Below are positions 28,525 to 55,086 of a DNA stretch of 62,206 nt, piece after piece. Source of the DNA: Nemertoderma westbladi. Lineage: Eukaryota > Animalia > Xenacoelomorpha. A model generated the notes under the pieces. That model had not been told where the DNA came from, made no database searches, and saw only the letters and a program-made list of their open reading frames with translations. Positions within the stretch are counted from its first letter, which is position 1. Each line of letters starts with the position of its first letter. The stretch lies in contig JAUCBJ010000987.1 in NCBI GenBank assembly GCA_032718475.1, forward strand, positions 1 to 62,206, written 5' to 3'. Position numbers and translations under genes: made by a program.

Positions 28525-28641
28525 TGTTCGCGCTTTTAGACCTTTTAGCAGTTAACCTGCCAATTTAAATGTGCCTTTAATTATAAATCGAGTTTTGCCC
28601 TTACCAATTACCTGGTGTACTGAATTTACATCCGCCGAAGC
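28525..28641 (-). repeat. Remnant of the A2 3' LTR
   Basis: 117 bp matching 57896-58012 with about 3 differences. Ends where the B2 LTR begins. Confidence 0.85.
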
Positions 28642-28967
28642 TGTGACGGGATCAGAGATCCCGACCGGGTAAATTGTTATACGCGTCACCGTCACCGTTG
28701 GCTCTGAGATGGTACTAATAGCTTGGCCGAGGCCGTTGGAGAAAAGCGATAAGAGTTTGATGTTGTTTCTTGATGTTATAATATATGATAGCACAATTAA
28801 TATGGCAGAGATAATAGTATGTGATTGATACCGGTAATAATATATGATGACAGCCGATGACGTTGAATAATTGTTACCGGTTTGCACTAAAACTGAGTAA
28901 CTAACTAACTGATGTACCAATCCAAGAATCTGACATAATATATGATTGATACACCAATATTGCTTCA
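28642..28967 (-). repeat. Probable 3' LTR of B2 (326 bp)
   Basis: Sense TGAAGC...CCCGTCACA, directly preceded by the purine tract GGTAGAGTAGGAGG. The same terminus ends B1 at 7519. Confidence 0.6.
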
Positions 28968-30072
28968 CCTCCTACTCTACCTTGGCCTGCTACCTAATGG
29001 ATGCTCTCCTGTGCCCTATCATGTGCTTCCCTCCCCCCTATTGGCTAATATGCACTTCTCACCCTGGCACTCTCTGGGAGTGTTTCCCCTGTGCTGCTAG
29101 CCTCTACTAGCTGTGTTCCCTCCGAGGTGGTTTGACCTCTAACCTTCCTTTCTGTGTGGCTACGGGGCTTGTGCTATCCCCCCCCCCCCAAATGTTGGTT
29201 GTGATACGAGATTAATATTGCTAATCTCGTATCTCCAACATATTTCTAAAATGCCACCATCCCATTTTCTGGTGGGTAATGAAGTGGAATTGAATCCGCT
29301 TACACTCCCCCCCATGCTATCTTCCCGGTGAGAAGATAGCATCAACTTCAAGTGCGCTTCAATTCTGCTGGAACCCGATCTACTATCGGGTGTGGGGTGG
29401 AGTTCTTTTCTCGGGGTTGGCTTTCCAGGCCGCCCCCCCTGGGTACGATATAGCTACACCTTCTTGGTGCAATCGCAACCTATGTTGCACCAAGACATCT
29501 GACGTCTCGGTTCGAGACAATTGTGGACTCCTTTCACACAATTTTATACCACCTCTCTCTGAACTCACTCTAACTTCACTCCACTCTATATCCTATGGAC
29601 CCTATCGTCCCTCACTCTCTACCTTACTGCTCGCTCCCCACATTCGAATTGCACCCGTCTACATTCTGCGCACGTCAACACCTCCTCTCCGTTCCTCCCC
29701 CATGTTCCTATACTCAACCCACATTTATTTCACTCCACTCACTCCTGACGAGCCTCACCCTCCCCTTTTGTGCCGTCACACTCAAGAAGTGTGATTCGTC
29801 TGCTGTCCTGTCCTCCTACCATAGTCAATTGGTCCCCAGTCCCAGTAGCTAGTTGGAAAAGGTTATATGACTATAGTACTTACTTTGATTATATTGATTC
29901 TAATTATATTCTATTGATTATTACATATGTACATACTAATTGCACTTTATTAAATTTGCACTTAGGAGTTCGTATTACTTCACATGTGATGCCTTCCAGG
30001 CATCCCCACATCTCCCCCTCCGAGTCTTAGTTCGCTCCTCCCATCTTCGGGAAACATCTCAGTTCCTTCCCT

Positions 30073-31500
30073 CTATCGTCGTCCTGTCTGGGTCGCTTCA
30101 TTCCCTCTGGTTTGTCTTCCTTGAGACTCCAGTTCTCTCGGTCTCTTCCTCGCGAAATTGCCCTCAGAGACCACTGGCATGGGCATCGCTTGCAATCCTG
30201 ATGTCGACTGTTTCGGCGATTCTTCTGTCCATCCTAGCTCCTCCCCCAGAAATTCGCCCAAGCTCCCTGATCCCCACCGTAGCTCGTCCAGGTTCTTGGC
30301 CTCGAACCCGTAGTCCTCTCCTCTAGCTTCCGCCTCTCTTTCGTCTGCCTCCCTCCTTTCTCGTCTGGCGACTTCTTCCAGTCGCTTCTCTTCCAGTCTA
30401 GCTGCCTCCAGCTTCTCCCACCTCTGATATGGTGTATCCACCTCCCTGCCTACTAGATGCCGGCAGTTGTAGTATACCGACTCGCCCTTCAGCCCCGGGT
30501 GGTCTGCCAGACCTTCGAAGGCCACCTTGAAGGCTCTTCTGTAGTTCAGGGGTGATCCTGACAGCAGAAACACCATTGGCTCTCTTCCGATAACCACGGC
30601 CATGAATAGGTTTAGTAAACCTATCATTATCCAATCCTCCTGCAGGATATATCGCTTCTGATATATCTTTATCACTCCTCTCTGGAACTGATACACCTCC
30701 TGTTTCCGTGGCCTCGCTCCCCACTTCAGCGAGTTCGCCAGCTCCGCTCCGTACTCCTCCCTGAATTTACCCCAGTCCATCGGCTTGTGGCAGACGAGCC
30801 CCATGCGCTGGCCCATTGCCACTGCTCCGCAATGTCCTGTCTTCTCTATCAATCCCAACCCGTCTGGCCCTGTCATGGCCATGTAGACCGCTTGCATGTC
30901 CAGGAGGTTGGGAGTCTCCGGTCTGACGATCCTCTCTGCATCGTCGTGGATCGCCGATCCCACCTTCATCGTCGACTTCTCCCTTACTAGGTTCTGCACT
31001 GCCCTTGGCAACCGGTTTAATTTCGGCCCGCTCTTCTACCCATACGTTCCTAGCTCGAATAGGAATATGTCTCCATTTGGCACAGCCAAATGCAATAGTA
31101 TGGTTCTGGCCGACCCCACCGACCCTCTTCTCGAACCCTCGTCGTCTTCCACAGTCCCCTCGTCGTCTAGGACCATGTATCCTCCCCTGTTTACGGACTC
31201 TACGAACCTCCTCCAGTCCTTTCTCGGTGGTTCCCTCGGATACTTCGGTATCCCGAACTTCGCCTCGTCCCCTTTCACTACGTAGTGGAAATGCTCGAGG
31301 ATCGCGTTGTCTAGCGACGGTGTCCCGTAGGTCCCGACCAGTCGCCTCTTGTGCATCTCCCTGAAGTGGTCTTGCAGCGCTCGCGCTTTGTGACCCTTCG
31401 CTAGCGGGTGAAGTCTACTAGTATCTCCTTTCCACTTCTTTCCGTCTTTCTCTTCCTGACAAGTCTCTCCGCCATTACAAACACTCCCGATCGCTCACCC
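30073..31500 (-). pseudogene. ORF3 of B2: DEDDy 3'-5' exonuclease (WRN/RNase D-like), frameshifted
   Basis: ExoI MVLDDEG, LPRAVQNLV...KVGSAIHDD (ExoII), LLDMQ, W...QKRYILQED (ExoIII-like). The start is approximate. Confidence 0.65.
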
Positions 31501-32027
31501 ACTTGGTGGTGCCTTGCCAAGGCTCAAAATAGATGAGTGACGTTACTAAGATGGTCTGTATGGTTCGGTAATGGCCTATCTCTCTCAGAACACTAAATTT
31601 GCACTATATTTTTGACCTATTTGCCCCCCAAAGTGCTAACTTTCCTAAATTCCCCAAATTTGTTAGTTACTTTTATTATGTTCTAGAATTTTCACCTACT
31701 GTTTCTACTATTATTGCTCATAGTGGGTTATTTCTGCCTAGATAACCCGTATGGTTTGCATACAGAGTAGACTAGCTATTATCCACTGTGCTAGTCTGCA
31801 CCAGGTAACCTCCTGGCCCTGTATCAAACATTCTAACCTACTCTACGGGCTGTGCAGTACAGTAGTCTGTCTCGTGCGGCCCACACGGTCTATCCTGCTG
31901 TACCCATGTGCCCCCCTCACTTTCGTGGTGATTTCTATGCCCACAGCCCCTATGGTACTACGTACCCTATCACCACTATTCCTATGATATATTTACATAT
32001 TATACTCTCCACTCTCTTACTACTAAC

Positions 32028-32290
32028 TCTACTAATTCTGCTGACTCTACTAACTATACTAACTACACTAACTCTACTAACCCTCTAACTCTACTAACTC
32101 TCCAACTCTACTAACTCTCTAACTCTACTAACTCTCTAACTCTCTTACTCTACTAACTCTATAACTCTCCAACTCTACTAACTCTCTAACTCTACTAACT
32201 CTACTAACTCTCTAACTCTACTAACTCTATAACTCTCCAACTCTACTAACTCTCTAACTCTACTAACTCTCTAACTCTACTAACTTTACC
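32028..32290. repeat. (CTCTAA/CTCTACTAA)-type microsatellite
   Basis: Visible directly in the sequence. Confidence 0.9.
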
Positions 32291-32297
32291 AACCCTA

Positions 32298-32575
32298 ACG
32301 GTACTATGTACCCTCTTACTCCCGTGGTATGTTTATATACCACACTCCCTATACTTCTAACTCTAACAGTACTATGTACCCTCTTACTCCCGTGGTATGC
32401 CTATATACCACACTCCCTATACCTCTAACTATCTACTAACGGTATTATGTACCCTCTAGCCTCCCGTGGTATGCCTATATACCACACTCCCTATACCTCT
32501 AACTACCTACTAACGGTACTTTGTACCCTCTTACTCCCGTGGTATGCCTATATACCATACTCCCTATACCTCTAT
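32298..32575. repeat. 68-74-bp tandem repeat x4 with internal hairpin
   Basis: TGTACCCTCTTACTCCCGTGGTATG units near 32301, 32369, 32442 and 32516. Confidence 0.85.
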
Positions 32576-32745
32576 CTGCCTACTTACTTACTACTACATA
32601 CTATCTACTATTACTTTCTTTTTCTAACTTTCTATTTATTTCACTTCTTTATTTTTATTTTTTTTATTTTTTTTATATTTTGTGTGGGAAGGGCGTCTCG
32701 CCCTCAATCCCACCCCCCTCAGTCCAACACTTGGACGACTAAACT

Positions 32746-34000
32746 CTATGGTGCCCCTTCTAATAGGCAGCACTTCCCTACAGCCCTCCTGTAGGTCTTC
32801 CTGTCCTTTGCTCCTATCTTACCCCCTATCCGCACTTCCACTCTAGTGTCTCTAGTCTCTCAGTGTCTACCACTCTCGCTAGCCTCCACTGGTTAATGAT
32901 GATTGTGTCGTCAGTGACGATCACCAAGTCACCTTTCTTCAACTCTCTAGTGGTGTTTCTCCACTTGCTCCTCCTGTGTAATGTGGGTAGGTATTCCTCG
33001 ACCCACCTCCTCCAATACTCGGCGCTTATCGCCTTGGCGACTTTCCAACTCTGTCGGGAGTGTATGTCATCTGGGTCTACACCCTGCATGTCGATGGTCG
33101 CCGGCCTTTCTATCAGAAAGTGGCCCGGTGTTAGTACGTCTAGTGATTCTGGGTCATCATTCTCCGGGTATAGCGGTCTGCTATTGATGATTCACTCACA
33201 CTTAGCTAGCACCGTTCTTAGTATGTCCTCAGTGACCATGTGGGTGTTCATCAACTTTGTCATCAGACGTTTAGAGCTACCCACAAGCCTCTCGACACAT
33301 CCTAAAGTATGTGGCACATACGGCGTCCTCCTTTCCCATTTCACCTGTCGCCTCTTCATGGCCGCCCTGACATCGTCTCCCTCTAGGATGTCAAAGGCCT
33401 CTGCCAACTCGTTCTCCGCTCCCACAAAGTTAGTCCCATTGTTGGAATAGATCACTGCGATTGTTCCACCTTTGCGGTCTCTAAATCTCTCTAAGGCATT
33501 AATGAATGCTGATGCCGTAGCGTCCTGCGCGAGTTCTATTCCTACCGCCCTCGTGTTGTTGCATACGAAGATGATGCCGTAGCGTTTCTCCGTGTGTCAC
33601 ATCACCCTGATCTTAATCGGCCCGAACATGTCTACGCCGCAGTGCATGAATGGCGGGTCGTGCTGTCTCACTCTACTGGCCGGTAATGGCGCCATCTCCT
33701 GTACGGCCCTCTCCTTTCTCGTCCGTCGGCAGGTCTGGCACTGCCCCACTACCGCCTTCACCTTCTTCCTTAGCTGCATGATCCATAAAGTCCTCCATAT
33801 CTCTGTGAGGGTCTGGTTGGTGCCTCCGTGTAATATCGACTTGTGGGAGTCCCAAATGATCTGGTGGACTATCGGCGATTTGTTGGGAATGATTACGGGT
33901 TTTGGTGGGATGATTAGGCTGTTGTTGTTCAGCACTCTGGAGTTCATCACCAGAATCCCATCATCGTTTAGTTGAGGGGACAGCGCGTTGAGCTCGCTGA
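32746..34000 (-). pseudogene. Bel/Pao integrase, disrupted
   Basis: H..HGG...C..C zinc finger, QEMAPLP, GVDMFGP, SNNGTNFVGA, YWRRWVEEYLPTL. Contains stops and frameshifts. Confidence 0.92.
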
Positions 34001-34106
34001 CCCGACGAAGATGTTGTTTATATGTTTATATATATATGTAAAGGTTATGAGGTCTCGGGACCGGTACTAATGCTTTACTCCGATATAACGGTGTTACTTA
34101 CATTAG

Positions 34107-35426
34107 TTACCGGTACCTGCTGATGGGTGCCCGGTTGGGAATCCGCACTAGGTGGTAGTGGCGTCGCTCCTGCTGCTGAGGTTGTGAGGAGCTACGGGCA
34201 ACTGAGAGGGAACCGGTAGGCCGCTGTTGGGAGACGAAGTTACCGATACGACAGTAACGGGGCCAGATCTCACCACCAAGAAGAATATCCGCTTCTTCAT
34301 CTTTACAGCTGATAATGAACGAACGGTACGATGGATTTGGGTTGGATCCAATGGCCATACACTTGATATCCAGGTTAACTTTACACTTTACATAAGCTGT
34401 AAGCTCCTGAGCTTGAACCTCGGGAGCACAACCAGTTAAGAACAACTTGCGAAGTGGCTGAACAGTGGCAAACCCCAATGAGCTGGACTTACCATGAATG
34501 TATTTTGTTCGATGACCCAGTGGCTGTGAGCGACGCCCATCATCCCCAGATCCGCGAGCCGGTACTTTGCGAGCACTCGTTGGTTCCTTATCCTTAACTG
34601 GTTTGCCTGCACGCCCAACCTTGACGTATGGCACCCCGCCATCCCATCTGTAGGCTGGCCAGGAAGAGGTAGTCACATTCAACTGAATTGGACGTGGTAT
34701 GACCTCTTCGATCGATGCGGTAGACTCGGAGTTGGAATCCAGCTGATCGGTACCGGTAAGGTCAGGTACCAAAAAAATTGACTTAGGGGTAGGTTTCTTC
34801 TTTCTCTGCCTCTTGGACTTGGACTAAGAATTAACCGCCTCCGCGACATTCAGACCACCAGAGACCGAACTGAGGCCTGCACTAGTACAGGTGCCGGTAG
34901 CAGTATCGGGGGTTGCAGCAGAACAACTGACGACAGTCGGGGCGTTTAGATTACTCTCCATTACCACAATACGATCCTGGGGAGAGCTAACCATGTTTAG
35001 AAGGAACAGCATATCAGAGTCTGTAGACCCAAATGGCGGGATAACAGATAGATCGCACGGAACGAAAATTGGCCTAGGTTCCAAGGACTGGAACCCTGGA
35101 AATTCGAACATCTCTAGGATATCCTTTACAATAAGTTTCCTCATATCCTCACCTTGTTTCCTGTTCTTCACGAAGCTCTGTTTCGAAAGACCAGCTCTCC
35201 TCTCGTTCGAGCTACCCGAACCCGACGATAGCAAATTTAAGAGAAGGGTCTTGGCCTCCTTCAGCAGCGCATCTGGAAACTTTGGCCACGGCCCAATGAC
35301 AGCGGCAATTGAGTTGGGGTGCAACCCACGGGTGTGGGAGGTCCAGATGTAGGCTAAAATATCATTCCCTACATGACAGCAGGGACTAACAGCAACAACG
35401 GGTGGTATGTCCTCATCTAAGGTCAT
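34107..35426 (-). pseudogene. LINE ORF1-like protein (RTE-X/CR1-group type) with one in-frame stop; no ORF2 follows
   Basis: ORFs 34824-35426 and 34107-34772 are in frame. N-terminal ILAY...EAK.LL...KDIL...P.FVP.DLS.IPP and C-terminal LFLTG...YRSF...WP motifs. Confidence 0.6.
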
Positions 35427-35658
35427 ACTCTCTGTGGTGCAGCAGTAGGTACCAGGGTCCGGGACCGGGGTAGGCAGAAGGCAGGTAGGTGGTAGGTACT
35501 ATCTGTAATATGGCGGTACCAGTTTCAGTGTTTACCAGTTGTAGGTTATGAAATTGGCAGACTCACCGTAAGTCACCATATAATAGGTGGGAGCTGCTGC
35601 TTATATAAGCCACTGCTTCCAGTATATTTTATTATTTTTGCCATTTATTATTTATATA

Positions 35659-37418: not shown

Positions 37419-38535
37419 AATTTATTTTATAGTTGAATGCCTATCACGATAATAACAGTTAAAGTAAGTCTAGGGGAAATCAGTATCAACTGTCAGTCTC
37501 GTAGTTACCGATATTGCTACTCAATGTAACATGGTATATATCTAGTATTAGAATACCGGTATACACCTATAGTATATATAACAGTATTATTACAGACTAT
37601 GATCAGTCACAGAATACCGGTATATAAGTTTAGCCTAATTTATATAAATATATAATAAGCTTACTGTAAACACCGGTAATGTCAATAATTTAATAATAAC
37701 TGATTATCCAAATTTTAGGAATTATTTCCCTTTACTTTATGGCTGATATTAAGCAGTAGGTTCTACTGATATTAAGACCTTTTGATGTATAATAGGCCTA
37801 TTAATTTATAAATCTGATTGAGTTAATTTATAAATATATATATATATATATATACCCGTGATGGGTTTTGTCAATATTTGAAATAAATGTTATTATTTCT
37901 GAGTAAGAAGTCACTACACAGAGGCTGGACGCTCTCAGTGGAGTGCTACTTGTTAAGACACTAAATACTGATAATTCTACTTAACTAAGTTACTTATCAC
38001 TACAAATTACTTACGTATCGGGTTAAGATTACACAATCTCTAAATAAACAATGAACAAGTTAAAGTACAATTTTTAGGGTAATTTAACAAGAAATTTACG
38101 AACCAGACTAACAAAGAGTTAGAATTTCTGGTTCTTACAGACTGACAGGAATTGAGGTATTTTGAAACCACTAAAGTAGTATTCAGTACGTTGTGTTGTC
38201 CAGATAAGGAAATGCCACCGCCTGACTGCTTATAGTCTACACTATACGCACTACTTACCCAGAGTGTCCTATACCTAGAGATTACTTATCGAAGCCAACT
38301 ATAGCTAATGGACCTATTAACCACGTTACAACACAAATATACTGCCTACGCACTAAATTAACTTTCAGGAAAGCACTGTACTCTAAACCCTAAATTAGGT
38401 ACTAGCTCTTATACAATATATAACTTACAGTTAAATATATGTGAACAGCCAAAAGAGCCACGGTATCTGCTGGAGTGACCGGAGCACTAAAACACCAGTC
38501 TGTCCTACTCCAAGCAGTCCTGAAGTAGTACCGGG

Positions 38536-40717
38536 TGATAAACAACCGCGACCTCTATACTAACAGCAGAACTGTTGAACAGACAAATACCCGTTAATAT
38601 CCTTCTGCCAACCTAATGAGCTCTCGTCTAACCAATAAGACACAAAGACTGCTCTACTGTTAAGTAAAGGGGATCAGGAGCGTGATATTACTAAATTGTA
38701 AAGGTTGCTAAATACAAAACCGCTACTTACCGTTAGATGGCGCTAATCTGCCGTCCGCTAATATATTTACTAAATTTACACAACTCCTGCAAAATCGCTT
38801 GTTCCTTTCTCTACCGATCGTTCGATAGAGAGCTAACTGTTCGAATCTATGAGCCACGCGGGAATAACCAAAACAATAAACCCGAGTCGGCTCCCTAAGC
38901 TTACTTAAGACGAGTGCGAGAGGCTTTGCACTCAGAGTATTCTTACGCCTAATTTTACCACTATCAAAGCACGCTATTGCCTACGTCCTTTCTAATCGCG
39001 AATACTGGGGGTTCCCTAACGTAATGTGTGAATGCGAGAATATTTAAAATATCAAAATGGTACAGTATTTGTCTTTACGTGGATAGTATCACTCTGGGTC
39101 TAAACTTGCCTGCCGCTGGCTTTAGGCCAGCAAATTACTAGCGTGTTGTGTGTACCGAATAGTGCGATCTAGCTGATTGCCCGCTAATGCAAATAACCGC
39201 TCAGCGTGAATAGTTTACAGTACTCTAATTATTACCTTAGCTACTCTCCGCTATGCTGCGTACTAATTCCTAATTTTTACTAATCAATTACAGTCACAAA
39301 TATGTAACAGCGTACTAATTACTAAGAGTTCCAGAACGCGTAATTCTAATTTACTACGCAACAGGTTTCGCTAGTAACAGCCTAAATTGCCGTATTACTT
39401 TGACCTAATCAGTAACTAATTGTTGTAACTAAGAAATAGAAATCAATCAAAGAGAAAGGGGCGCCTACCTAAACATTCATAATCATAGGCACACTTCAGT
39501 ATCACACCAATCAGCATCAGCAATCACAGTTCGCAATTATGCAGTTAACTACTGTATAGCTCACAATTATGCGATTCACTATTCGTACTCCACACTCAAC
39601 GTTATAATACGCGCAGGCCTCTCCCGGATACATCTAGGCTTCCTAACTAACCCGATTCCTGCCCCCCTAATACTAAATAGAGACGAAACCTGGATCATCA
39701 GCCCCCTAGTTACTGTACCGGCGAATGGTCTGCGTGTTACAGTGCAAATGCCCGCCCGCAACGGTGAACCAGCGTTGCCCGTCTTTGAATCCTCCGCTCT
39801 CCCCTAGTCGCTCAACCCCCCGATGTGCCCACCGCCTACTGGCACCTTAGCCCTCATTATGCTAATAGCTACCGTAGCGGCACATGCAAATCACAAAGTC
39901 TGACAGTCTCAGAAATCCCTTAGGATTATTGCGTAGAAAGGAATCACATAGAACCATTAACAAAGATAGAAATCATAGTTCCAGTTGTAATTAGCAGTAA
40001 TCGATAGGATTAATTGAGAAACACAATCAAGAATAATCGCACTAGCAAATCATTTGGAGAAATTAATCGAAAACAGCAAATTGCAGAAATACGCTAAAAT
40101 ATCAGTCAAAAAATGAATAGAGACAGCTCAGCAAGTACAAGGGTGATAGATAGAGCTCTACCGGCACACCGCCAATTTATAGGTGATCCGAGTGGGATGA
40201 TGCAATAGGGTGACTCAATCGCTCTCCTATTGGCTCTCCAGTCCGCGCTAGCATTAAACCAAGCTGGAAGCAGTTAGTCCAATAAGGAGGCCGGATTGTA
40301 GCCCTATTGCTCCCCAAACCTCAAATTATTACCATATATGGTAATGGATCATGTTCCTGGCTGCTGAATGGCCAGGACAGCATCCCTATATGCTAGCCCT
40401 ATTGAAGCTAATATCAGCAAGCACGAAATCCAGGGTCCGAATAAACTTGCTACCCTGGAACTATCTACATATATCCTAATACAAAATTACGTAGGTAGGG
40501 CTACATATTATACAAAATGGATGGATTCAAATATATGGGCGTTTTGGTTTCCCTATCTAAATATCATTGTGCTATTATGCCTTATCTAAAATATTATGCT
40601 GCACAACGGACTAATATTGCGTACAGTATAACGGACTAATATATTATACTGTATAATGAACCAATATATTATACTGTATAATGGCTAATAATGTGTACAG
40701 CGCCATATACCGTAACA
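38536..40717 (-). repeat. 3' LTR of C (2182 bp)
   Basis: Near-identical direct repeat of 55087-57241, with a few substitutions and short indels. Confidence 0.95.
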
Positions 40718-41206
40718 CCGCTCCAAGGGAAATCATATAATGTTTCCCTCCAATTGTAGAAGAGTATAAGGTGATGTATACAAACAAAATAAATTTCTTT
40801 CAAATAATCTAAATAACACAATAATTCTACTATTTACAAATATTGCCATAGATATTGCATAATGAATTTACATACAAATTAAAATTACAAAAATATTATC
40901 TCTCTCAATGTTAACGATTATTACATACAAATTAAATTTACAAAAATACTGTTTCTCATTCGCACTACATAATGATTACTACATACAAGATCAAATATAA
41001 AATTTTGCTAGGGCAAGTGAAAGGAGTAAGCCAAACCCGCAGGTTTGTCTCCCCAATCACTTCCTTCGCCTCTCTCATAATATAAATTCAAATAATTGCG
41101 CAACTAGTGTATATGAGTCTAGTCGGATATTTCTAAAATGCTACAATATACATCAGAGCGACGATGATGTATATATCTAGAGTCTGTCGCCCTGTGATAC
41201 GATGCA

Positions 41207-44200
41207 TTAACGACCCGCTCCTGGGTTCTTCGGGCTCGCTCCTCTCTTTCGCCCCCTGCCCAGATACACCAATCGTCCTCTAGTCGACTCTGTTGATGGC
41301 GTCCGTGAGGCGTCACTCCCCGGAACCGGCGACGATGTTCCCTGAGCCCCGACAGACTCCCGGCTCGTACTTCTCCCTCGGCCTCGTCCCAATTGTCGTG
41401 CTCCCGTGGTCGCTTCCGCCAACTCTTCCTTATGCAGTTGCACACGCGCTTTTTCAGACGCTCCCTGCGCCTTGCGCTGCAACCTTTGCGCTTCTATAAT
41501 AGCGTGATAGTGGTCGTCCTTGACTTGATGCTTGTCTTGGACCCCTCCTCCTGGTTCTTTCCGCGAGCTTTGAGCTCCAGCGGTCGTCGCTGTGGTCGCT
41601 GCGATCCTCTGTTCCTCTATCCTCTCAGCGGTCAATGACCCCACTGGCACATGAGTCAACAGGAATTCGTTGCGGTATTGTATAGCCGCCATCCTCCAAT
41701 CACCTCGCGCGCGTACCACTTTTCTAGTCTCCGTAAATACACCCTTCGTGATGCGATCGCAAATAGCAACGAAGTTCCAGGTGTACTTATTGTCCATATT
41801 CAATTGTCTGAAGTATTCTCGGACTACGATAACTCCAGTGTTCTGTGGAAGGTCTTGAGCAGTTAGGATGAGTTCCTGATATTGTGGTAGCGATTGTAGA
41901 TATGGCTCGTACGCAACATGCGATGGGTCTACCGCCCAAAATCCATACCCCGCCTTAAATGGTAACCAACGCATCTGCGCTTGAATATGGTAATCAGCCA
42001 CACTCTCCCACTTATCTAACATCTCCCGAAGTAGGTTAGCGCTATGGTTTTGAAAGGAATCATCTCGCAGCTGACATCTCGCGCTACGATGTCCCTTTAC
42101 CCCACAATATCCGCATTGAGAAATGAAGACGGTGCACGTGTGAAACGAATGGTCGGTCTCATTACACCAACGACAGACCTTATGCGGCGCCTCTACTACC
42201 GCGTCGCACGACTTTAGATTGTGCCTTGTGCTGCCGCACAACTTGCACCTACGCGCTTGTGGAAACCAGGCCCTCTCGTATATGAGGTCTCCAATCGGTT
42301 TCGCACTTCCTTCTTTCCCAATGTCTAATACGATGTCGTCCTCTCCGGTCAACGGTTGTCGATCCGGAACAAAGTAAACATCCTCGCCCTTGTCCTCTAT
42401 CTCCAATATTTCCTCCCGCGTTCGTTTTGGATGTCTTCTCCACCGGAAGATCTACTCCGAACATCTCTACTAATGTCTCCGGCCAGCCCTCCTTAACAGG
42501 TCTATCAGCCTCCGAGTGGAAGGGAGTACCAAACCCGCGGGTTTGATTCCCGAACCACTTCTCCAAAGCTTCTGGCGTCGGATACTCCATCGACGGTCGG
42601 TCTCCCAAATCTCCGATGTTCTGTCGATATACTCCTTCGAATATCGCTAATCCTCTCCTAACCATCGACGTATTCTCTAACGATTGGTTGAAGAACGGGG
42701 TTAAGAAACGCTTCATCACGTCGGATTGGATTCCCCCTTTCGAGCGAACGTATTGATCTCCTCCGTATACCAATGGATGACGCTTCAAAACTCGCGCAAC
42801 GATATCCGCTAATAAACAAGTCACCGTGTTCGACTCAAGCACCAAATAATATTGTAGCGACGCACGGGGTGGCGCGCAAATGTTCCAATACACTAACGCT
42901 TGCCGCTTGAAGTGGGATTTGAACTCCGCTCCCGGTGGCATGTTGTATTCACCATACGCCTCCTCGTACTTCTTCTGCGTCTTTAACTTAAAGTCCCAAT
43001 TATACAATAAGTGTGCTATAAAGCCCATACCAGTCTTGGCAGAGTTGGGATACTCCCTATAAATTCCAATATCCTGTGCCCATAGCAACAATAGCTTGGT
43101 GTCGACAAACGGTCTCGGCAATCTATCTTCCAGATCAGTCATGGCGTTGAAGTCACTCTCCAAATCGCTCTGGACTCCCGATCCTACCTTGACGTAATCT
43201 TGGTTGAGAATAGCCTCTCTAACTTTCTTGGGTAGCATCCTGGCGTCGATACGCTCCGCTCCGTGCATACCTCCAAAATCGGTTCCCTAGGATCCTTCCC
43301 CTTCCGATATTGTGTCGTTATGATGGGCTCCGGTCTCTCTCGATCCGCCCTCACACGCATAAACACATGAGTCACACCATCGGCCGCACGAATTTGAATG
43401 CACTTGCTAGTCAAACATTCTTGATGGGACCCTCCTTCATTATCATAAAACATCACCCTCCAATCTTGCAGTGATTCCTCCGTTTTCCTCCACTGACGCT
43501 GAATCTCGTCTGATGGGGTCCACATGCGCTCGATCGCCTTGTGGTCATCATATCGGGTATAAGAACCCTTCCTCCTCAGCCACGTCTGGTCTACCTCCTC
43601 GTTGTCTGGGAATGTAGCCACCGCGACCCATACCTTGATGTACTTATCCAACCATCCGAATAGTTTGCTCTCCTTCCCCGGAGCTCCAATCTTATCCAAT
43701 GTGTCGTAATCTGTGATCTGCATTGGGACATCACGCAAGAACTTCGCGCATAAAACTTCCCGTAGACAGTCAACGTTCCAATGGTCCGCCATTCTTACCA
43801 TCGGCAAGAATCGTATCGCTTCTCGCGACTCCGGATGATCTACTAATATCGCAGGTTCGGTGCCGTCGGAATAATACACTGGTCGGGGTTGAGATACGAC
43901 CTGTGGAACAAATCCGGTCACTCTCCTCGTCTCCTCTTGATGTCTATCCGCGGTCTTATTATACTCCGCTATCCTATTCTCAACTAACTCTTTCGCCTTC
44001 GCCGCTCGCTCCTCCTGCCGCAACGCGTCTATGTCGTCCTGATGCTCGGGCGTGAGGGTTCTCACTCGGTGAGGTGAAGTAAACGCAGTCCAGGGACTCG
44101 AGAGCTCCAAACCCGCGGGTTTGGTACCCGAGTCCCGTGCCGCTTCGCGCCGCGCCTCTAGATCCTTATAGGCTCGGTACAGCGAAATGGCCGCTGCCGT

Positions 44201-44896
44201 CTCTATCAAACTGGGTGTCGAACAGGGTTTAATCTCCGTATACGGATCTAATGTCGTAACGGTCGGCGTAATGGGTCTCGGAGGTCGCTTTCCGCTGAAG
44301 TCGATACTGATCATCGGGTTGCTCATCGGGTAACCTCCCTCGTTGTATCTAAGGAATTGGTGAGCTGGACATCGCGTTAATATCGGTTCTGGATGTTGCT
44401 CGTCTAGTCGATCGGGAATCGCCACGTCCTGTTTATTCATGCATTCACCACACTTGTAGAACAGCTTGTACACGCTGAAGACTTTCGGCGTCTCCTGATC
44501 CTCGCCTCGAGTCCTCCGGTACAGATGCATTCCATCGAACTGATCTCGGACTGCAGGTAGCGGCTCCTCGTGTCGTAAATACATATTCATATGGTATAGT
44601 CGTGCGATTTCCTCGTCCGGATCTGCGCTGATGTCACACACGTCCAAAGCGAAATCGTAGGGATACCGAGTGCGATACTCTCTCCGCAAAACTTCCATCC
44701 GGTCCCCCAACGCTCTCATTCTTTCCCTCCGTAATTCCTTATCATAAGTCGGTTTGTATTTCCCGTTTAGCTCCATCACGGACCGCCCATGGTAGTAAAC
44801 GTTAGAGTCTTTACATCCTGGTCGCGCGAATGGTAGCTCCGCCTCCTCTCTGGCAGTAAATCCTCTGCGCGGTTGCGCTCTAATATCCTTCTCCAT
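41207..44896 (-). pseudogene. ORF3 of C: unknown N-terminal region, DEDDy 3'-5' exonuclease, three CCHC knuckles and basic tail (two frameshifts)
   Basis: VMFYDNEG; LPKKVREAIL...VKVGSGVQSD; FVDTK; KTGMG; W...QYYLVLES. Knuckles CKLCGSTRHNLKSC, CRWCNETDHSFHTC and CGYCGVKGHRSARC. Confidence 0.72.
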
Positions 44897-45663: not shown

Positions 45664-47889
45664 CTAATTCTGTTTTGAGGCAGGAGACAAATTATAATCT
45701 CCCGTCTCGATGCGTGTCTCCTCTAATAACACGATATCTTGGACCGGTCGGTCCAAGGTGTGCAAACCATTAGTTTTACACTTTTTTGGGTGCGGACACT
45801 TGCACCTAATTTTCACAGTGACTGTGCGCACTATGTTTTGCACGTCTGGGTGTGTGTGCAAGATCACTCCTGTCTCCCAATACTTTCTCTTGACAATGGG
45901 TTCGGTTATCAATACGTAGTCTCCCCTTTGGAGACTCCGAACCGTTTTGTACCACTTTGTTCTGGTGGATATGGTGGGAAGATAGTATTCCCGCCAATAT
46001 TCCCAGAATGTGTACGCAACAAATTGAGTCATTTTCCAGCTTTTACGACTATATAGGTCGGCACTAATGGGTTCTGATGCCGGCACAAGAAATGCTGGAC
46101 TCTGCATTAGCAAATGATTCGGCGTTAATGCAACACCGTCTGGCAACATAGCTATCGGCCTCGAGTTTAGGGTATGCTCGATTTCAATGAAAGCTGTGAC
46201 CAGTTCGTCATCGGTAAGTTGTTTGTTTACAGGCAACGTTTTGGCAATGGCCTGCTTTACAGAGCGAACTAAACGCTCCCAACTTCCTCCTCTCCAAGGA
46301 CTTTCTGGAGTATTAAATCTCCACTCTACTCTTTGCGGCAAAAGTGCTGCAGAAATTTCCTTATTCTGTGCTGCTTTATGAGCCGCGTTCAACTCGCTAT
46401 TCCCTCCGACAAAGTTTGTACCCTTATCGGAGTAGAACGCCTTTACTAGTCCTCTCCTGGCCATAAATCTCTTTAAGGCCAGGAGCAGAGATTTGGTCGA
46501 CATGTCTGCCACACGCTCAATGTGTATGGCTCTACTAGCCATGCATGTCAGTAGCAGACCCCATCGCTTGTGGGTCAGCCGTCCACTCTTTGCTTCAATC
46601 GGACCAAAACAGTCCACCCCTGTGTTCGTAAAGGGTGGGTCATATGCCTGCACTCTCGCTTCCGGGAGTTCAGCCATCTCCTGTTCCAATACTCTGGCGT
46701 TCACCCTCTTGCAAACCAGACAGGCGTCGTACATAGTGCCGACTGCCCTGCTTGGCTGCAATAGAATGAATCGCTGTCTCGCTGCCGACAGACAGTGTAA
46801 CCTTCCCGCGTGATGCAACCTCTTATGTATATCCCATAGAATCGCTCTTTGCAATTCTATTGGGTGACTAGGGATTATCACTGGGAACCGAAACTGTGAG
46901 TTTATGTCGACAGTCTGGATTCTCGATCTATGACAAATCAAACCCTTATGGATTAATGGACTCCATTTTCTAAGGGGTTTATAGAGAACTGGTCGTTGAG
47001 CCGATAATAGATGGAATTCTTTTGGGAAGGCACACATTTGATAATGCTTCAAATGCCTTAACTCCGCTTGATCAATCTCATCCTCTGTCAGAGGTTGTTT
47101 CAATTTCCGAATTCGCTCACTATTGGCGCTCGATGGTTCTCTCAAATGTTTCGAATGTTTTAAACAAAGGTACGAAACGTATCGGCTTAACCACGCAGTT
47201 CTTTTACAAATTGTCAGCCAAGAGGCAGACGAATTTAGTAATTTGTCATAAATACTGCATGACTCTAATGCCAGCGACGGTTGTCCGCTAATTAATGGAA
47301 GTTTCGAATCCAAACCCGCAGGTTTGGAAACCAAAGGATCCATCGTGTCGGTCATTTTCTGTCCATCACTTACCAATTGTGACTCCGGTTTAGTCTGTAA
47401 GGGTGGTTTTATGTCGTAACTTACCCTTCCGGACCTAGTAGTCACGTAAGTCTGTTGGTCTGACAGGTCTCCGGGCCGCTCCAATGACTCTTCAGGCCGC
47501 TCAAATGACTCTTCAGGCCGCTCCAATGACTTAAGTTTGGCCTTAGACTTCGACTTAGAGACTTTCTCCACCTTGACTTCTGCATCTTCAGGCATCGGAT
47601 TGGTCACTATCTTTAGTCGCTCTGGCCAATGTTCCTGTGTCCTCGTTAGAAAATCAGGTCCATGCAACCAAAACTCCTGCGACTCTTCCTGACAGAATTC
47701 CGCCGGCATTGCACCTCTCGAAGTTATGTCGGCCGGATTCAACACTCCCAGACAATGTCTCCATTGTTCCTTCGTCGAAAAGTCGACGATCTGAGCGCGT
47801 CTATTGGCCACGAATGTCTTTAGTGCAATATTGTCGGCCGCAATGTATACTAACACTAAGGATGCGTCCGTCCAATAGAATAAGGTCAA
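45664..47889 (-). CDS. pol 3' part: RNase H C-terminus and integrase
   Basis: YWTDAS, NPADITSRG, HHAG...CLVC, GVDCFGP, SDKGTNFVG and GGSWERLV motifs. Confidence 0.95.
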   Translation of the reverse strand: MTLFYWTDASLVLVYIAADNIALKTFVANRRAQIVDFSTKEQWRHCLGVLNPADITSRGAMPAEFCQEESQEFWLHGPDFLTRTQEHWPERLKIVTNPMPEDAEVKVEKVSKSKSKAKLKSLERPEESFERPEESLERPGDLSDQQTYVTTRSGRVSYDIKPPLQTKPESQLVSDGQKMTDTMDPLVSKPAGLDSKLPLISGQPSLALESCSIYDKLLNSSASWLTICKRTAWLSRYVSYLCLKHSKHLREPSSANSERIRKLKQPLTEDEIDQAELRHLKHYQMCAFPKEFHLLSAQRPVLYKPLRKWSPLIHKGLICHRSRIQTVDINSQFRFPVIIPSHPIELQRAILWDIHKRLHHAGRLHCLSAARQRFILLQPSRAVGTMYDACLVCKRVNARVLEQEMAELPEARVQAYDPPFTNTGVDCFGPIEAKSGRLTHKRWGLLLTCMASRAIHIERVADMSTKSLLLALKRFMARRGLVKAFYSDKGTNFVGGNSELNAAHKAAQNKEISAALLPQRVEWRFNTPESPWRGGSWERLVRSVKQAIAKTLPVNKQLTDDELVTAFIEIEHTLNSRPIAMLPDGVALTPNHLLMQSPAFLVPASEPISADLYSRKSWKMTQFVAYTFWEYWREYYLPTISTRTKWYKTVRSLQRGDYVLITEPIVKRKYWETGVILHTHPDVQNIVRTVTVKIRCKCPHPKKCKTNGLHTLDRPVQDIVLLEETRIETGDYNLSPASKQN

Positions 47890-47936
47890 TGTCGTGTCTA
47901 ACTCCTCAATTATCTGCTTACTTACCTCGACCGAAA

Positions 47937-49493
47937 CTACAGCGCCTGTAACTCTGCACGAGGGACAGTCATGTATTTGACCGGCATTGTCTTTGATCTA
48001 GAAGTCACAAAGGCCGTCTCAAACTTGTCCTGACTTACCTCTCGGCGAAGGTAGGCTACCATACCAAAGCCGGTGTCACTTGCGTCACTAAATAAGTGGA
48101 GTTCGAGATCAGCTGGAAATACCAGCTGATTCGGAAAGTAGGAACGGGGTACATCTATATTTTTCAATAGATGCAACTCGGCTTCCCACTCCCTCCACTG
48201 CTTTGCATGTATAGGAGATATTGGTTCGTCCCACTCTACGTCGGACAACCAAATTTTCCTCATGCACGCTCGTGCCTGTAATATAACCGGACTGATAAAG
48301 TTCATTGGGTCAAATAGTCTACTTAATGTCGATAAGCAAATCCTCTTTGTCAAAACTTTGTCTGGGCTACTGGGCTCAAATCTAACTCTTACCTGGAACT
48401 TATCCGTATTCGGGTTCCAAGCGAGTCCCAGTACTCGCGCCATGGGGATTGGTTCTACCCCCAATTCTATGTCTCCGCTCCCGCGATCTTTCACCGGGAA
48501 CGATTCTAATAGGGCCTCCGAGTTAGTAGTGAACTTGGTCAGAGGAAATCCCCCTGTAGCCAAGCACTCTTGCAGGCCGTGAGCCACTTCTATGGCTTGT
48601 TCCGCCGTGTCCTTGGACACCAATCCGTCGTCCATGTAGAAGTTTCTCAAGATGGACTCGATAACCTCTACTGGGTACTTACCAATCTGGGCTGTTGCCG
48701 TTTTCTTTAAAACGAACAGCGTGCCATTTGGACTATCGCGGGCGCCAAATATCCTAATGTACATCTGGTATGTAACCACTGGGCCGGATAAGTCTTCATT
48801 CTCATACCAGAGAAAGCGAAGGCTATCCTGGTCTGCCTTACAGGCTCTTACCTGGTGGAACATCGCCTCGATGTCACAAGTAAATGCGAATCGCCGCTGT
48901 CTAAAACGCAACAGTATTCCAATCAAATAGTTATTCAGGTTGGGACCATCCATCAACTCTGAATTCAGGGACATACCTCTGTAGACTGCTGCGCAGTCGT
49001 TGACTACTCGGACTTTGTCAGGCTTGTCAGGGTGAGTCACATAGTGGTGTGGAAGGTAATAAGTCTGGTCTGTCACTAAGTCAGGGTCCTCTACCTTCCC
49101 AGCAAATCCCTTGGCGAAATAGTTGTTGATCTGGGCGCAATACTTCTCCCTAATGTCCGGATTCTTTAACAACCGAGCCCTTACTCCGTTTAATCTTTTC
49201 AAGGCTAAGTTGTAGTTGTTCTCCAACTTAGGTGGTTGTCGACGCCACAACATTCCAACTTCAAAATGTCCAGTCGGTAGCAGACGTATGGTATCTTCCA
49301 TCATCTCCAGCGACAGTTTCTCATCAGTAGACATGGCTAGGTCATATCCACCGGGTTCCATTGCGTCCCTATCCAGCCATTCGACGGTTCTGGCTCCTGT
49401 CTCGAGGTCCTGGCGTATCAATTCCTTCTGTAGCTCCTCCTCACTGTATTGGAAAATGTCTAGGTCTCGATATTTAGCCACTTGACCCTCCAC
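47937..49493 (-). CDS. pol: reverse transcriptase and Pao RNase H N-part
   Basis: YYLPHH, KVRVVND, DIEAMFHQ, FYMDD, LHLFSDAS and PRAEL motifs. A 1-bp deletion lies near 47942. Confidence 0.95.
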   Translation of the reverse strand: MEGQVAKYRDLDIFQYSEEELQKELIRQDLETGARTVEWLDRDAMEPGGYDLAMSTDEKLSLEMMEDTIRLLPTGHFEVGMLWRRQPPKLENNYNLALKRLNGVRARLLKNPDIREKYCAQINNYFAKGFAGKVEDPDLVTDQTYYLPHHYVTHPDKPDKVRVVNDCAAVYRGMSLNSELMDGPNLNNYLIGILLRFRQRRFAFTCDIEAMFHQVRACKADQDSLRFLWYENEDLSGPVVTYQMYIRIFGARDSPNGTLFVLKKTATAQIGKYPVEVIESILRNFYMDDGLVSKDTAEQAIEVAHGLQECLATGGFPLTKFTTNSEALLESFPVKDRGSGDIELGVEPIPMARVLGLAWNPNTDKFQVRVRFEPSSPDKVLTKRICLSTLSRLFDPMNFISPVILQARACMRKIWLSDVEWDEPISPIHAKQWREWEAELHLLKNIDVPRSYFPNQLVFPADLELHLFSDASDTGFGMVAYLRREVSQDKFETAFVTSRSKTMPVKYMTVPRAELQAL

Positions 49494-52400
49494 TATCTGG
49501 GTTCGCTATCTGTCTGGTCATTGTGGAGTGGTTCCGACAACCTAACATTATCGGGAATCAACTCCTCGTCCGACTCGCTAAAGTCACTATAGTGGTCAAT
49601 ACAGGTTCTCCTAAACTCGTCTATGTCTGGTGGTTCTACTAATGGTGGTTGAGTTATAGGCTGTAATTCTTCGCATCTGTCTATTGGCTTGTCGCCACCT
49701 GTAAACTCATAAGACATGGGTACTCTTGTATACCAACCTAGTATGGTCCTATGGGCATGTGGTCCGTTGACATGCGGCTCAGCTGGTCTTGTTTCCCATA
49801 TTTGGTGTGCGATCAGCTGTTCTGCACCAATCAACATAGAAACATTCCTATAACCTACCTGGTGTCTGGGTATCCTGAGCTTGTCAAAATACTCCTGTGC
49901 TATGGGACTCATCGGCGGCACCTTACCTAACTGCCTGCCGAATCCCTTCATAGCTAGACACTTAAATCCGTCCAATGGCAAAGCTTTCCGTTCTTGTCGA
50001 GTGTGTCGGTCTCTCGGAAGTAGGGAGTCTAGTTCCACCGAAATTCTGTGTCCCTTGAGGTCACCTACCCCATGCATAGACTTCAACTCTATTTGGATCT
50101 CCTCTGCGTCCTGGAAGCTAGAAACAGCTCTCGCCACTTCCTCGTCGATATACGATAATGTGGACGCAGTGTCCAACATCACATATATTCGCTTTGATCC
50201 CTTATCTCCAGTAAGTTTCACTGGAATCACGCTGAATATTTCCGACGTGGCCGATGATAAATACGTCCGCGCGCTGGTCGATGAACTATCCGCAGTGAAA
50301 CCTTGGCAGGTCACTTCTCTCGCGCTCGACTCGCCATCCTCGTCCGACGAACCTGGTTGGTAACCATCGTCCTGGATGCCAGTGTACGTATTCCTCCTTA
50401 TCGATACGGGTTCTTTGCTCCCCTTCCTGTGAGGATTTCGCTGTAAGTAACGGTCCGTTGGGGTATGGAAATCCGCATGTAGCAACTTGTGATGTAGTCT
50501 GCCGCATTCCATGCATCCGTCCTTGCTGTTCGGGCACTGCCGCCGTACATGACCTGGCGCAAGACATGCCCAACAGGTGTCCAACGTCCGCACTTGAACT
50601 CTTCTTTGTTCCGAATTTAATTCTTTGAACCGTCTGCAACTATCTAACTTATGGTCGTCAGATCTTACCTCCTTTAGTAAACAGTATTGGCAACCTACAA
50701 ATCCATCCGGCAACTCCTGTTGCTTTAACCTAGGTTTATCTAACCGCTCACCTGACCATACTCGCGAGTCTGATCTAAAGGCTGGGGTACTCGAATTATA
50801 TTTGTCTACTGAGTTAAATGTCACAGTGGTCCTGTCATCGTCAAAACTTACCATAGACTTACCGGTAACAGGTTTAGACTCTCTCATATTCTCTTCTGAG
50901 AAGTTTGATTTCATCTCTGCTACTGCGTCTGTGGCTATCATGTCATGAATATGCTGAAGTGTCAATACTTTACCTTGGCCCTCCAACTTATTCTCTAATT
51001 TGCGCCATTTCTGTCTGTAACGCATGTTTAAACGTCTTATTACGCTCTTTAAAACTTCGGCGTGATCACCATGATGAGGTAGATTCACCGTCTTCAAGAT
51101 GTCCAATGCGTTCGAAATAGCGTTCGCTAAGTTCAACAGCTCTAACGGAGTTGTAATCCTTTCGCCCTTACCCAAGTCTTCTACTATCGACTGCGCCATC
51201 TTGGTTTTATTCCCGTAGATGTCACTAAGCGTCTTCATCGCTAACTCAAATGCTCTCTCATTGCCGACGAAGTTGTCAGCAATGGCTCTAGGTTCTCGAT
51301 GGAGCATCTGAAGCAAATAGTTGAACTTCTCGTTGGGAGTAAAGGTGCTGTTGGTCAGCTGCTCGTCGACATAGGTTTTGAAGGTCCTCCAGTGCTTGTG
51401 GTTGCCCATAAACTTCTGGGGTTGTTGCGTCGGCAGTCCTTGCCTAGCAGCAAACTTACCTATGTCCCTAAGGGTTGCGTCGTTCCGGGTTAACAAATGG
51501 TTTAGTTCCGCAGGGTTGTTAAGTCTGGTCCTTTCCCGGTGGTTCAAACTTACCTGCTCCGCGTCCGTCCTTCTTTCCTTATAGTTTCGGAACTTCTGAC
51601 GTCTCATGTCTTCCTCTTCATCGCTTGACTCGGTGTCAGTCCTTAGCGCTCGCGATGGTTTGCGCGCCGAGGCCCTGACCCAGGCCTCCTCAATAAATCT
51701 TTCCGCCGAATTTTCGAAATTGGGATTATGGTTATTTGGGACAGGCGTCCTTACCTGAGGTCTATGTGGTATAGTCTCCTCCGATATGCGTACTCGTTGA
51801 CTAGGCTGGACTTTGTCTAACTCAGGCCTGCTAGGATTTGAATTACTTCTTACCTGGGCTGCTTCCTTTAACCGTAGGTTGCTAAGCATGTCCGTTATAG
51901 GTTGGATGTGCGGCGATATAGCTTGCGCTAAACTAGCACTTAACTCATCCCTCGTAATAAATTCCTGGCTAGGGTTCTGTTGTATAGTCGGCTCTATCTG
52001 AGTAATCCGCTGTCTCTCATATGATCCCTCTTCCGGTTTAACCCGGAAGTTCTCCGTCGAACTGGGTCGGCGCTCCATCCGCGTATTCCAAACCCGCGGG
52101 TTCGGTTCGCCCAATACTCGTCCCGTTGGAGTTTCTTCTCTAAATTCTCCGTTGTCTCGTTCGGTATACAGTGGTGCGGTGTTCCGATGACGTAGATCCT
52201 GCGCGATAGGTGAAGCACTAATACCAACTGGCGTGCGATATGTAGAGAATGGTTTAGCGATCCGTGTACTCGTAATAGCCGGACCGGGTATAGGAATTCT
52301 GGTCGTCGTCGACTCGCGTATGGTCGGAGTTCTCGCTTCCTGTTCGGCCTTCTGCAGTGCGAACAGTTCTCGCAACTCGGTCCCTACACTCGCCCCACAT

Positions 52401-53893
52401 TCTTCGATCATTCGCATCCCCTTCTCGGCGATTTCATTCGCCTTCCTGGTCCGTTCTTCGCTCTCTAAATCTAATCTCGCACTTTCCAACTGCGCCAGTT
52501 TACGTTCTTCTTCTTCCCTCGCTCGTCTCGCTACGCCCTCTTCTTCCAGTCGCGCCTTTTCTTCATACAACATCTGTCGCTCCTTCTCGATCTCGAGTTC
52601 GCGTTCTTTCCGTTCGCGTTCGAGTTGGAGTTCGCGCTTCTTCGCTTCCTGATCGCGTTCGAGTTGGAGTTCGCGTTTCTTCGCTTCCCGTTCGCGTTCA
52701 AGTTGGAGTTCGCGTTCCTTCTGTTCGCGTTCCGCTTGCTCACGCTTACCTTTGTCTTCCAACTCCCGCAACTTTGCGTCTAACTTACGTGCACGCTCCC
52801 GTTCCCGCTCAGCTTCCTTCCGTGCTTCCGATGCACGCAAAACTTCCGCCTGCTGTTCGTCCAGTCGGCGTCTTCTCTCCTCCGCCGAGTTGTGAGAAAC
52901 AAGGGATCTAGCACATATAACCTTCCCTCGCGCGTGACTAACCTGGGAATCGCCACTGTCTCTGGATGCATCATCGGGTGGAGTCAACGTCCTCTGTTGG
53001 ATGTTCTCCGTCGTCGGTAGCACCTGACCCGGTACCACCACTCCATTCTGCATCAGCCAGCTAGTAACTTCCCTCTGATAACGGCGCTCTTCTTTATCTT
53101 GGATCTCTTCTCGCTCCACTAAGTCTCTTAACTCTGCGTCACTCACTCGAGTCGCCTGCGCTTGTGATGCCCATAGCAGCCAGTTCTCCGTCCTAACTCG
53201 TCGGAATCGCTCCGGTAACTCGCGGTGCTCCAACAAGGCTGCTAAAACCCTGTCGTAAATCCTCGTCGCCACGTCGCTCGACTGAGACTATACTGCCTTC
53301 TTCGCTAGGACTGCAAGCTCCTCCGTCTGCTTGAATAACGCTGAGTTATATCCTCTTCTAATCTCTACTAACTCTACCCTCCCGATGTTCGCTGAGTCAG
53401 CTAACATCTTCCTTACCTTGTCCGTCGTCCGAGTTATATGTCCGGCGTGCGCGCGAAGTTTCTTCTTTATCGCAATGTCTAGTTCTCTCTCGCTTACCTG
53501 ACTCACACTCGGTGGACTTGAAGGATTATTTCGGGAACTACGGGTACTCCTTACAGCCGTCGGGACCACGGCACTTACCATACCCACAGGGCTGGAAACC
53601 GGGCTCCGGGCTCTCGCTTCTGCTACACTACCCTCCCTATCACTCACCTCCGTCCGGGCTGCTGTACAATCCTTCCTTACAGTAGTGGTAGGGGATCCTA
53701 ATACTATTACTGGAGGTTGTTCTTCTTCCTCACTAGTCACTGTCTCGTCCTCCTGTTCACTTACGTCAGCGTCGCTCGCTGCGTCGTCATAGTCGGCATT
53801 GTCGTCAACAGTAATATTTACGCTATCGTCAGTCGGCGGTCCGGCCGCCGTCTCATAGCTGTCCTCTAGTGCCTCTTTATCTGAGACACTCAT
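49493..53893 (-). CDS. gag and protease, with an in-frame TAG at 53288-53290
   Basis: ORFs 53288-53893 and 49493-53272 are in frame. Motifs KFMG..KHWRTF, CWACLAPGHVRRQC...CMECGRLHHKLLH and MLDTAS. Confidence 0.9.
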
Positions 53894-55074: not shown

Positions 55075-55086
55075 TGCGCGTATTAC
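55075..55086 (-). promoter_or_regulatory. Non-tRNA primer-binding-site candidate of C (sense GTAATACGCGCA)
   Basis: Flush with the 5' LTR. 11 nt form an inverted match to 56156-56166 and 39605-39615. Confidence 0.65.

Follow-up and report, generated by a model that had tools for sequence, protein, structure and literature searches.

A BEL/Pao retrotransposon of Nemertoderma westbladi with a primer-binding site complementary to its own LTR and a predicted exonuclease ORF3

Three BEL/Pao elements in the window

The window (the whole stretch of DNA analysed here, 62,206 nt of the forward strand of contig JAUCBJ010000987.1, Nemertoderma westbladi assembly GCA_032718475.1) contains an 18.7-kb BEL/Pao LTR retrotransposon on the minus strand, which was designated element C. 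Its main parts are as follows.

57241-55087, minus strand: 5' LTR of C, 2155 bp
45664-53896, minus strand: BEL/Pao gag-pol of C, in four pieces
41207-44896, minus strand: ORF3 of C, ATG at 44896, in three reading-frame pieces
40718-40724, minus strand: short polypurine tract (PPT) GGAGCGG, preceding the 3' LTR of C
38536-40717, minus strand: 3' LTR of C, 2182 bp, TG...CA
38531-38535 (+) and 57242-57246: target site duplication (TSD) CCGGG of C

The two LTRs of C differ by 10 substitutions over 2147 aligned positions. The gag-pol is broken by one in-frame stop and two frame changes, and a Pfam scan detected DUF1759, Peptidase_A17, the zinc domain of an integrase, and DUF5641 in it. A gag with DUF1759, a Pao RT-RNase H region, and an integrase with DUF5641 lie in this order between the LTRs, which is the arrangement that defines BEL/Pao. 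C shares this domain set and order, the TG...CA LTRs, the 5-bp TSD, and the PPT with the Belpaoviridae, and the nearest integrases showed only 33-41% identity to that of C. The ICTV profile of BEL/Pao elements gives an 18-nt tRNA-Arg/Gly primer-binding site (PBS), an LTR length of 0.2-1.2 kb, and a genome size of 4.2-10 kb, with tRNA priming as the sole priming (PMC8742986), whereas C has a self-complementary PBS, 2.2-kb LTRs, a length of 18.7 kb, and a predicted exonuclease as ORF3. Five copies of a near-palindrome, CAAACCC(A/G)C(A/G)GGTTTG, lie within C (at 41033, 42531, 44109, 45224, and 47312), including in ORF3 and pol, at spacings of 1.1-2.1 kb; a plus-strand scan of the window found none outside C.

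C was inserted in the leader of a second element, B, and a relative of B, element A, is found near the start of the window. Since the A leader is colinear with both flanks of C, C sits within B.

57896-58937, minus strand: 5' LTR of B, 1042 bp, beyond C
57885-57895, minus strand: PBS of B, TTAATAGATTT
58590-58600, minus strand: 11-nt complement of the B PBS in the B LTR
32826-34025, minus strand: broken integrase of B, about 35% identity to the C integrase
30073-31494, minus strand: broken exonuclease ORF3 of B, with an in-frame stop
28525-28641, minus strand: remnant of the B 3' LTR, last ~119 nt only
3820-5058, minus strand: 5' LTR of A, 60% LTR identity to B
3819-3808, minus strand: PBS of A, TTAAAGGATATA
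4580-4591, minus strand: 12-nt complement of the A PBS in the A LTR

The preliminary description had taken B to be without a 5' LTR and the window to be unfit for testing the co-occurrence of exonuclease and self-match. The B 5' LTR is nevertheless present at 58937-57896, the TSD TTGTC flanks B on both sides, and the two features co-occur in both testable window elements, B and C. The protease-RT region of B seems to be missing, the segment at 28641-30073, preceding the 3' LTR remnant, does not match the B 5' LTR, and non-BEL ORF pieces without a Pfam match, which we take to resemble LINE ORF1, lie within B at 34107-35498.

Elsewhere in the window are a BEL/Pao gag and protease fragment adjoining the A LTR (5032-7067, plus strand; DUF1759, aspartyl protease), a non-LTR retrotransposon with endonuclease and RT (13758-16467, plus strand), a 276-aa ORF carrying a RING finger at its C terminus (26192-27022, minus strand), and long inverted repeats resembling DNA transposon or MITE ends together with 15-nt tandem units in inverted arrays (7825-8538/18164-18873; 9738-10936; 59199-60286).

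ORF3 as a predicted exonuclease

ORF3 of C consists of an N-terminal part without assignment, a predicted DEDE-type exonuclease, and three CCHC knuckles, and its frame changes lie within about 43184-43286 and 42249-42451. The motifs were located as follows, the ExoI and ExoII coordinates being hand-counted.

43436-43444, minus strand: ExoI motif D-N-E, aligned with D-T-E of RNase D
43164-43166, minus strand: ExoII aspartate, in KVGSGVQSD
42834-42848, minus strand: ExoIII-like Y-x-x-x-E, Glu replacing Asp, beyond the HHalign match
42074-42247, minus strand: three CCHC zinc knuckles

A single ORF3 homolog, P0004 (E 3.5e-6), was found among 1.84 billion representatives; it is unbroken and also has the exonuclease and three knuckles. 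The ORF3s of P0004, B, and C were aligned, with X at the breaks, and compared with a profile of eight RNase D/polymerase exonuclease domains. HHalign gave a probability of 91% and a pairwise E of 1e-6 with ExoI and ExoII aligned; the score was 48.9 against a maximum of 17.9 in 40 column shuffles, and the reversal was negative. The ExoI DxE, the ExoII D, and an LP...KVG...D...LD segment align with RNase D, EXD2, and WRN, and the acidic motif residues are conserved across the three ORF3s, which are only 24-27% identical. In contrast to these DEDDy enzymes, the ExoIII motif reads YxxxE, not YxxxD, in C, B, and P0004, after an insertion, and the copies of B and C are broken. ORF3 is thus a predicted exonuclease of a divergent DEDDy-like type (DEDE variant). 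Its earlier description as a DEDDy protein with knuckles held for the ExoI/ExoII profile match and the three knuckles and failed at ExoIII.

The P0004 counterpart of the C knuckle region matched nucleocapsid knuckles, and the C piece matched P0004 with an E of 1.5e-5; no knuckles were detected in B within 28600-32900. P0004 matched Pfam DNA_pol_A_exo1 with an E of 0.2. Direct scans of the ORF3 pieces of C from the window gave no Pfam match, searches of PHROGs and NCBIfam yielded nothing relevant, and PDB sequence searches returned only the knuckles and a non-significant EXD2 match (E 1.8). No further homologs of the exonuclease were found among longer proteins or in a follow-up search, no loci in viral contigs or prokaryote genomes, and no phage match. 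AlphaFold2 prediction from the three-row alignment gave a pLDDT of 33.

DEDDy ORF3s are described in the bdelloid LTR elements Juno and Vesta and in Athena/Terminons; in Juno, Vesta, and Athena, as in C, the RNase D-like exonuclease is ORF3 after pol (Rodriguez et al. 2017, PMC5408684). Juno and Vesta are gypsy-like and have a DEED motif, whereas C is BEL/Pao and has a D-E-D-E motif followed by three knuckles. According to that paper, the bdelloid ORF3s are family-specific and absent from basal LTR-element branches, and 3'-end processing of element RNA and silencing are put forward as possible roles; the PBS is nowhere mentioned in it (PMC5408684). The literature outside subscription journals and Repbase yielded no published report of self-priming or of an exonuclease in BEL/Pao elements. 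An exonuclease of the BEL-like Cer elements of nematodes may be mentioned in a work by Malik from 2000. As a guess, ORF3 may be an RNA-binding 3'-5' exoribonuclease that would turn over element RNA or host silencing RNAs.

PBS-LTR complementarity in the window and in relatives

The preliminary description had held that the PBS of C lacks the tRNA-type TGG and is complementary to the LTR of C, with a copy of the complementary site in the 3' LTR as well. These statements were borne out by the following features.

55075-55086, minus strand: PBS of C, G-TAATACGCGCA, without TGG
56166-56156, minus strand: copy of TGCGCGTATTA in the 5' LTR of C, at LTR position 1076 of 2155
39615-39605, minus strand: PBS-complementary copy of TGCGCGTATTA in the 3' LTR of C, exact over 11 nt

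The 11-nt Watson-Crick complement of the C PBS, TGCGCGTATTA, has exactly these two copies on the minus strand, of which the 3' LTR copy adds no evidence because the LTRs are duplicates. The site lies mid-LTR, 1069 nt ahead of the LTR end, and a U:G pair closes the site-PBS duplex flush with that end. For C, a match of this length arose 16 times in one set of 5000 dinucleotide shuffles and 13 times in a set of 2000; the corresponding figures were 19 of 2000 shuffles for B and 0 of 2000 for A. When G:U pairs and mismatches were allowed, the single-element significance became weaker (A, 4/200; B, 24/200; C, 2/100 shuffles). An 8-nt spliced match in the C LTR was discarded as probably due to chance (6/300 shuffles, a weak donor, and decoys reaching 7).

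None of the three window elements has TGG in its PBS. Their PBSs all differ, and only the LTR of the same element matches each of them, over 11-12 nt; cross-element matches reached at most 7 nt among A, B, and C and 9 nt across 15 elements. The strongest argument for self-priming is this co-variation. A and B are related and hence are not independent cases.

A metagenome scan with the integrase alignment gave 519 confirmed loci, the best 80 of which were examined. Excluding five near-duplicates and the loci without both LTR ends left 12 readable relatives, in two of which (L004 and L027) the LTR ends were placed by hand. Nine of these 12, drawn from the best 80 of 519 loci, are self-complementary; L019 and L030 have a TGG PBS, and L027 has no assignable PBS class. 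A contiguous self-match of 10-11 nt was found in L045, L046, and L071, which was reached in at most 2 of 1000 PBS shuffles. In L004, L043, L055, L056, L057, and L060, independent loci with controls, the PBS complement is split mid-site by a GT-AG LTR intron, and a junction-only match of 10-15 nt (0/300 shuffles each) forms upon removal of this 71-186 nt segment; therefore, in these six relatives pairing with the PBS requires that the RNA be spliced. Sliding the splice site by 1-3 nt on either side, or using foreign junctions, reduced the match to 9 nt or less. The splitting intron is present in both LTRs of L043, L056, and L060. Among 13 further loci with inferred LTR ends, L010, L011, L061, L073, and L076 showed junction matches of 11-14 nt (without shuffle control), and L076 also has a TGG candidate.

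In L046 (1-326, 6694-7103), the contiguous site of the 3' LTR corresponds in the 5' LTR to an acceptor-like intron end, which suggests intron loss via a spliced template unless the contig merges two copies. The metagenome contigs may be merged copies, and LTR pair identity is 74% in L045 and 88% in L046. Apparent head-to-tail BEL/Pao tandems were seen at L029, L035, L037, L040/L041, L061, L068, and L080, where a new gag ORF begins shortly past the integrase.

No exonuclease was found in any of the best 80 of 519 loci, either by tblastn or by a profile that was built from B and C and recovers both. In the nine self-complementary relatives, gag-pol alone occupies the internal region, the integrase match lies 178-384 nt from the 3' LTR, and on this reading of the contigs there is no room for an exonuclease gene; seven of these relatives have a single unbroken gag-pol ORF of 1853-2156 aa. 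Self-complementary elements without ORF3 make up nine of the 12 readable relatives, a finding that the preliminary description had itself named in advance as one that would refute exonuclease trimming. The proposal that the exonuclease accompanies the loss of the tRNA PBS agreed with B and C, which show both, but not with the exonuclease-free relatives, whose PBSs are self-complementary all the same. The integrases of these relatives are only 35-41% identical to those of B and C. In a descriptive integrase tree (FastTree, midpoint root, 71 rows, 11 near-duplicate loci excluded), B and C group together with a support of 0.93 on long branches, apart from the exonuclease-free relatives; this grouping may be a case of long-branch attraction.

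Position of the site in the RNA and formation of the primer

TATA boxes were found 122-167 nt upstream of the site in four of the nine self-complementary relatives, and AATAAA or ATTAAA 6-89 nt downstream of it in eight of them, L071 included. By these signals, the site in these relatives would lie inside R, flush with neither end. The signals in A, B, and C conflict as to where the site falls in the transcript. A and B have CCAAT at -169 with TCAGT at -91 and -67, and C has a predicted acceptor-like signal 58 nt upstream of the site, which suggests that transcription starts upstream of it; a TATAAA was predicted in the C LTR 551 nt upstream. TTATAA is found 11 nt upstream of the site in both A and B and is absent at this position from C. 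If it were a TATA box, the site could lie in U3 and only the 3' copy would be transcribed. None of the three window elements has a TATA box at -30 of the site. In B, the canonical poly(A) signals nearest downstream of the site follow it by 220 and 315 nt, and a scan of the C 5' LTR found neither AATAAA nor ATTAAA. Splice-like signals were predicted in the C 5' LTR at 56115-55980 and 55281-55208. Contigs of a sequencing run, X1, which may derive from RNA, reach neither the site nor the PBS of C and contain no splice joints, and they count neither for nor against these signals. The LTR site may well lie in R and hence at both RNA ends. A site outside R had been named as evidence against fold-back of the RNA 3' region, which was too broad: a U3 site also reaches the RNA 3' end, and only a position in U5 excludes fold-back.

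Also conserved between the A and B LTRs are a splice donor, G|GTAAG, found 171-207 nt past the site start (about 4385 and 58430), and a TGA(C/T)(T/C)AAAATCAG motif about 125 nt beyond the donor.

A site-PBS helix was predicted in the 5' leader, with 80 nt upstream included, of B and of seven of the nine relatives, and in A only with RNA starting at the site; with such RNA its probability was 0.95 (A) and 0.93 (B). No helix was predicted in the unspliced 5' leader of C (probability about 0.01, loop of 1070 nt). When the C leader was folded with predicted introns removed, the helix appeared in one of 10 variants, which was not used as support.

Self-priming has been reported for Tf1/sushi elements and predicted for plant Tcn1 and TAR (Houba, Osr-1) elements (PMC6317226, PMC4600332), and it is established that RNase H cuts after base 11 in Tf1 (PMC7175516). 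As far as these sources describe them, Tf1/Tf2 and Tf1/sushi elements resemble C in having no tRNA PBS and about 11 nt of LTR that complement the PBS by the LTR end (PMC7175516, PMC4600332, PMC6317226). In contrast to Tf1/sushi with its Ty3/gypsy chromovirus-type pol, the pol of C is BEL/Pao. Unlike in Tf1, the site-PBS loop of A, B, and C spans 694-1070 nt, and the site of the relatives is internal and often intron-split rather than the first 11 nt. The post-site bases formed no significant Tf1-like stem with the U5 end.

We hold with considerable confidence that these elements prime themselves without a tRNA. The more specific model, that C primes reverse transcription with a piece of its own LTR RNA, probably cut by RNase H, and that ORF3 is accessory, is the one we favour, with reservations. 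In this model, the site of C would be transcribed, at or downstream of the start and in R, and would pair with the PBS, and, as happens in Tf1, the RNA would be cut where the duplex ends on its 3' side. The cap-proximal copy would be the simplest source, and it is placed first because it is near the PBS. Since an activity that frees a 3'-OH must exist in elements with gag-pol only, RNase H is the simplest candidate. The primer would be copied during plus-strand synthesis, by which the PBS would be rewritten in each cycle and stay matched to the site. We infer the start site, the poly(A) site, the cleaving enzyme, and the priming copy from sequence. The ORF3 exonuclease is likely an accessory protein dispensable for priming.

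A sub-case of self-priming without ORF3 follows Tf1 strictly: the transcripts of A, B, and C would start with the site as their first 11 nt, and RNase H would cut after base 11. The three sites are all 11 nt long, in register with PBS +1 to +11, and begin with a purine after T, as start sites tend to (A, T|A; B, T|A; C, T|G; against one of nine relatives), and the helix probabilities of A and B with RNA beginning at the site agree with it. However, there is no TATA box at -30, the CCAAT and TCAGT of A and B and the acceptor-like signal of C lie upstream, and the mid-site junctions and upstream TATA boxes place the site of the relatives inside the transcript. In addition, A and B do not count as independent cases. 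The purine-first 11-nt site, once taken as proof of strict Tf1 priming, was downgraded given the internal sites of the relatives, and this version deserves serious consideration while being unlikely.

Another source of the primer, which we consider rather doubtful, would be either the R copy at the 3' end or a separate transcript, spliced or short; RNase H or a nuclease of the host, and not ORF3, would then free it. This is suggested by the site-splitting intron that L043, L056, and L060 keep in both LTRs, since a retained LTR intron implies that the template copy was unspliced and the primer copy spliced; intron-like segments near the end of the C LTR are likewise retained. However, one RNA molecule in which the 5' copy has been spliced and the 3' copy has not would presumably explain these introns equally well.

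A rival reading takes up the hypothesis of the preliminary description that the exonuclease itself makes the primer: among elements of the B/C lineage, the 3' site copy would fold onto the PBS, and ORF3 would digest the poly(A) and the tail as far as the duplex. The co-occurrence in B and C and the acidic residues kept in divergent ORF3s speak for this, as does the TTATAA of A and B, which as a TATA box would leave only the 3' copy transcribed, and the poly(A) signal past the site in eight of nine relatives means that a 3' copy exists there. On the other hand, none of the nine self-complementary relatives carries an exonuclease gene, C lacks TTATAA at -11, and the distant (B) or absent (C) poly(A) signals imply a tail of probably hundreds of bases; moreover, first-strand transfer would presumably lose part of its R acceptor to the trimming. 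The comparative test goes against exonuclease trimming as a general mechanism, and an exonuclease supplied by the host or in trans may serve the relatives that lack the gene. Because the relatives test the general claim and B and C are a separate lineage, trimming is judged improbable rather than dismissed. B and C form their own long-branched lineage, so a role of the exonuclease specific to it is conceivable. The B/C lineage might have swapped the splice-built primer of its relatives for an exonuclease-made one, with a knuckle-tethered DEDE nuclease that would trim the 3' R/U3 copy or a short capped transcript to the 11-nt duplex with the PBS. We likewise give this little credence; if true, it would be a third priming route beside tRNA and RNase H cleavage.

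That the match in C is a chance or leftover one and a host RNA primes is very hard to credit: single-element shuffle values of only about 0.003-0.01 and the four of 14359 internal 11-mers of C (PBS included) with a complement in its long LTR would allow it, but three PBSs without TGG are each matched flush by their own LTR, and nine relatives are self-complementary as well.

Taken together, the three window elements and nine of the 12 readable relatives from the best 80 of 519 loci point to self-priming in BEL/Pao, by which Tf1-like priming is extended to another superfamily. The primer of six relatives exists only after splicing, and this raises the question of how an internal RNA segment acquires a 3'-OH. 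ORF3, as a predicted exonuclease, extends the DEDDy accessory genes of bdelloid elements to BEL/Pao, and its link with priming, if true, would be a new priming route.
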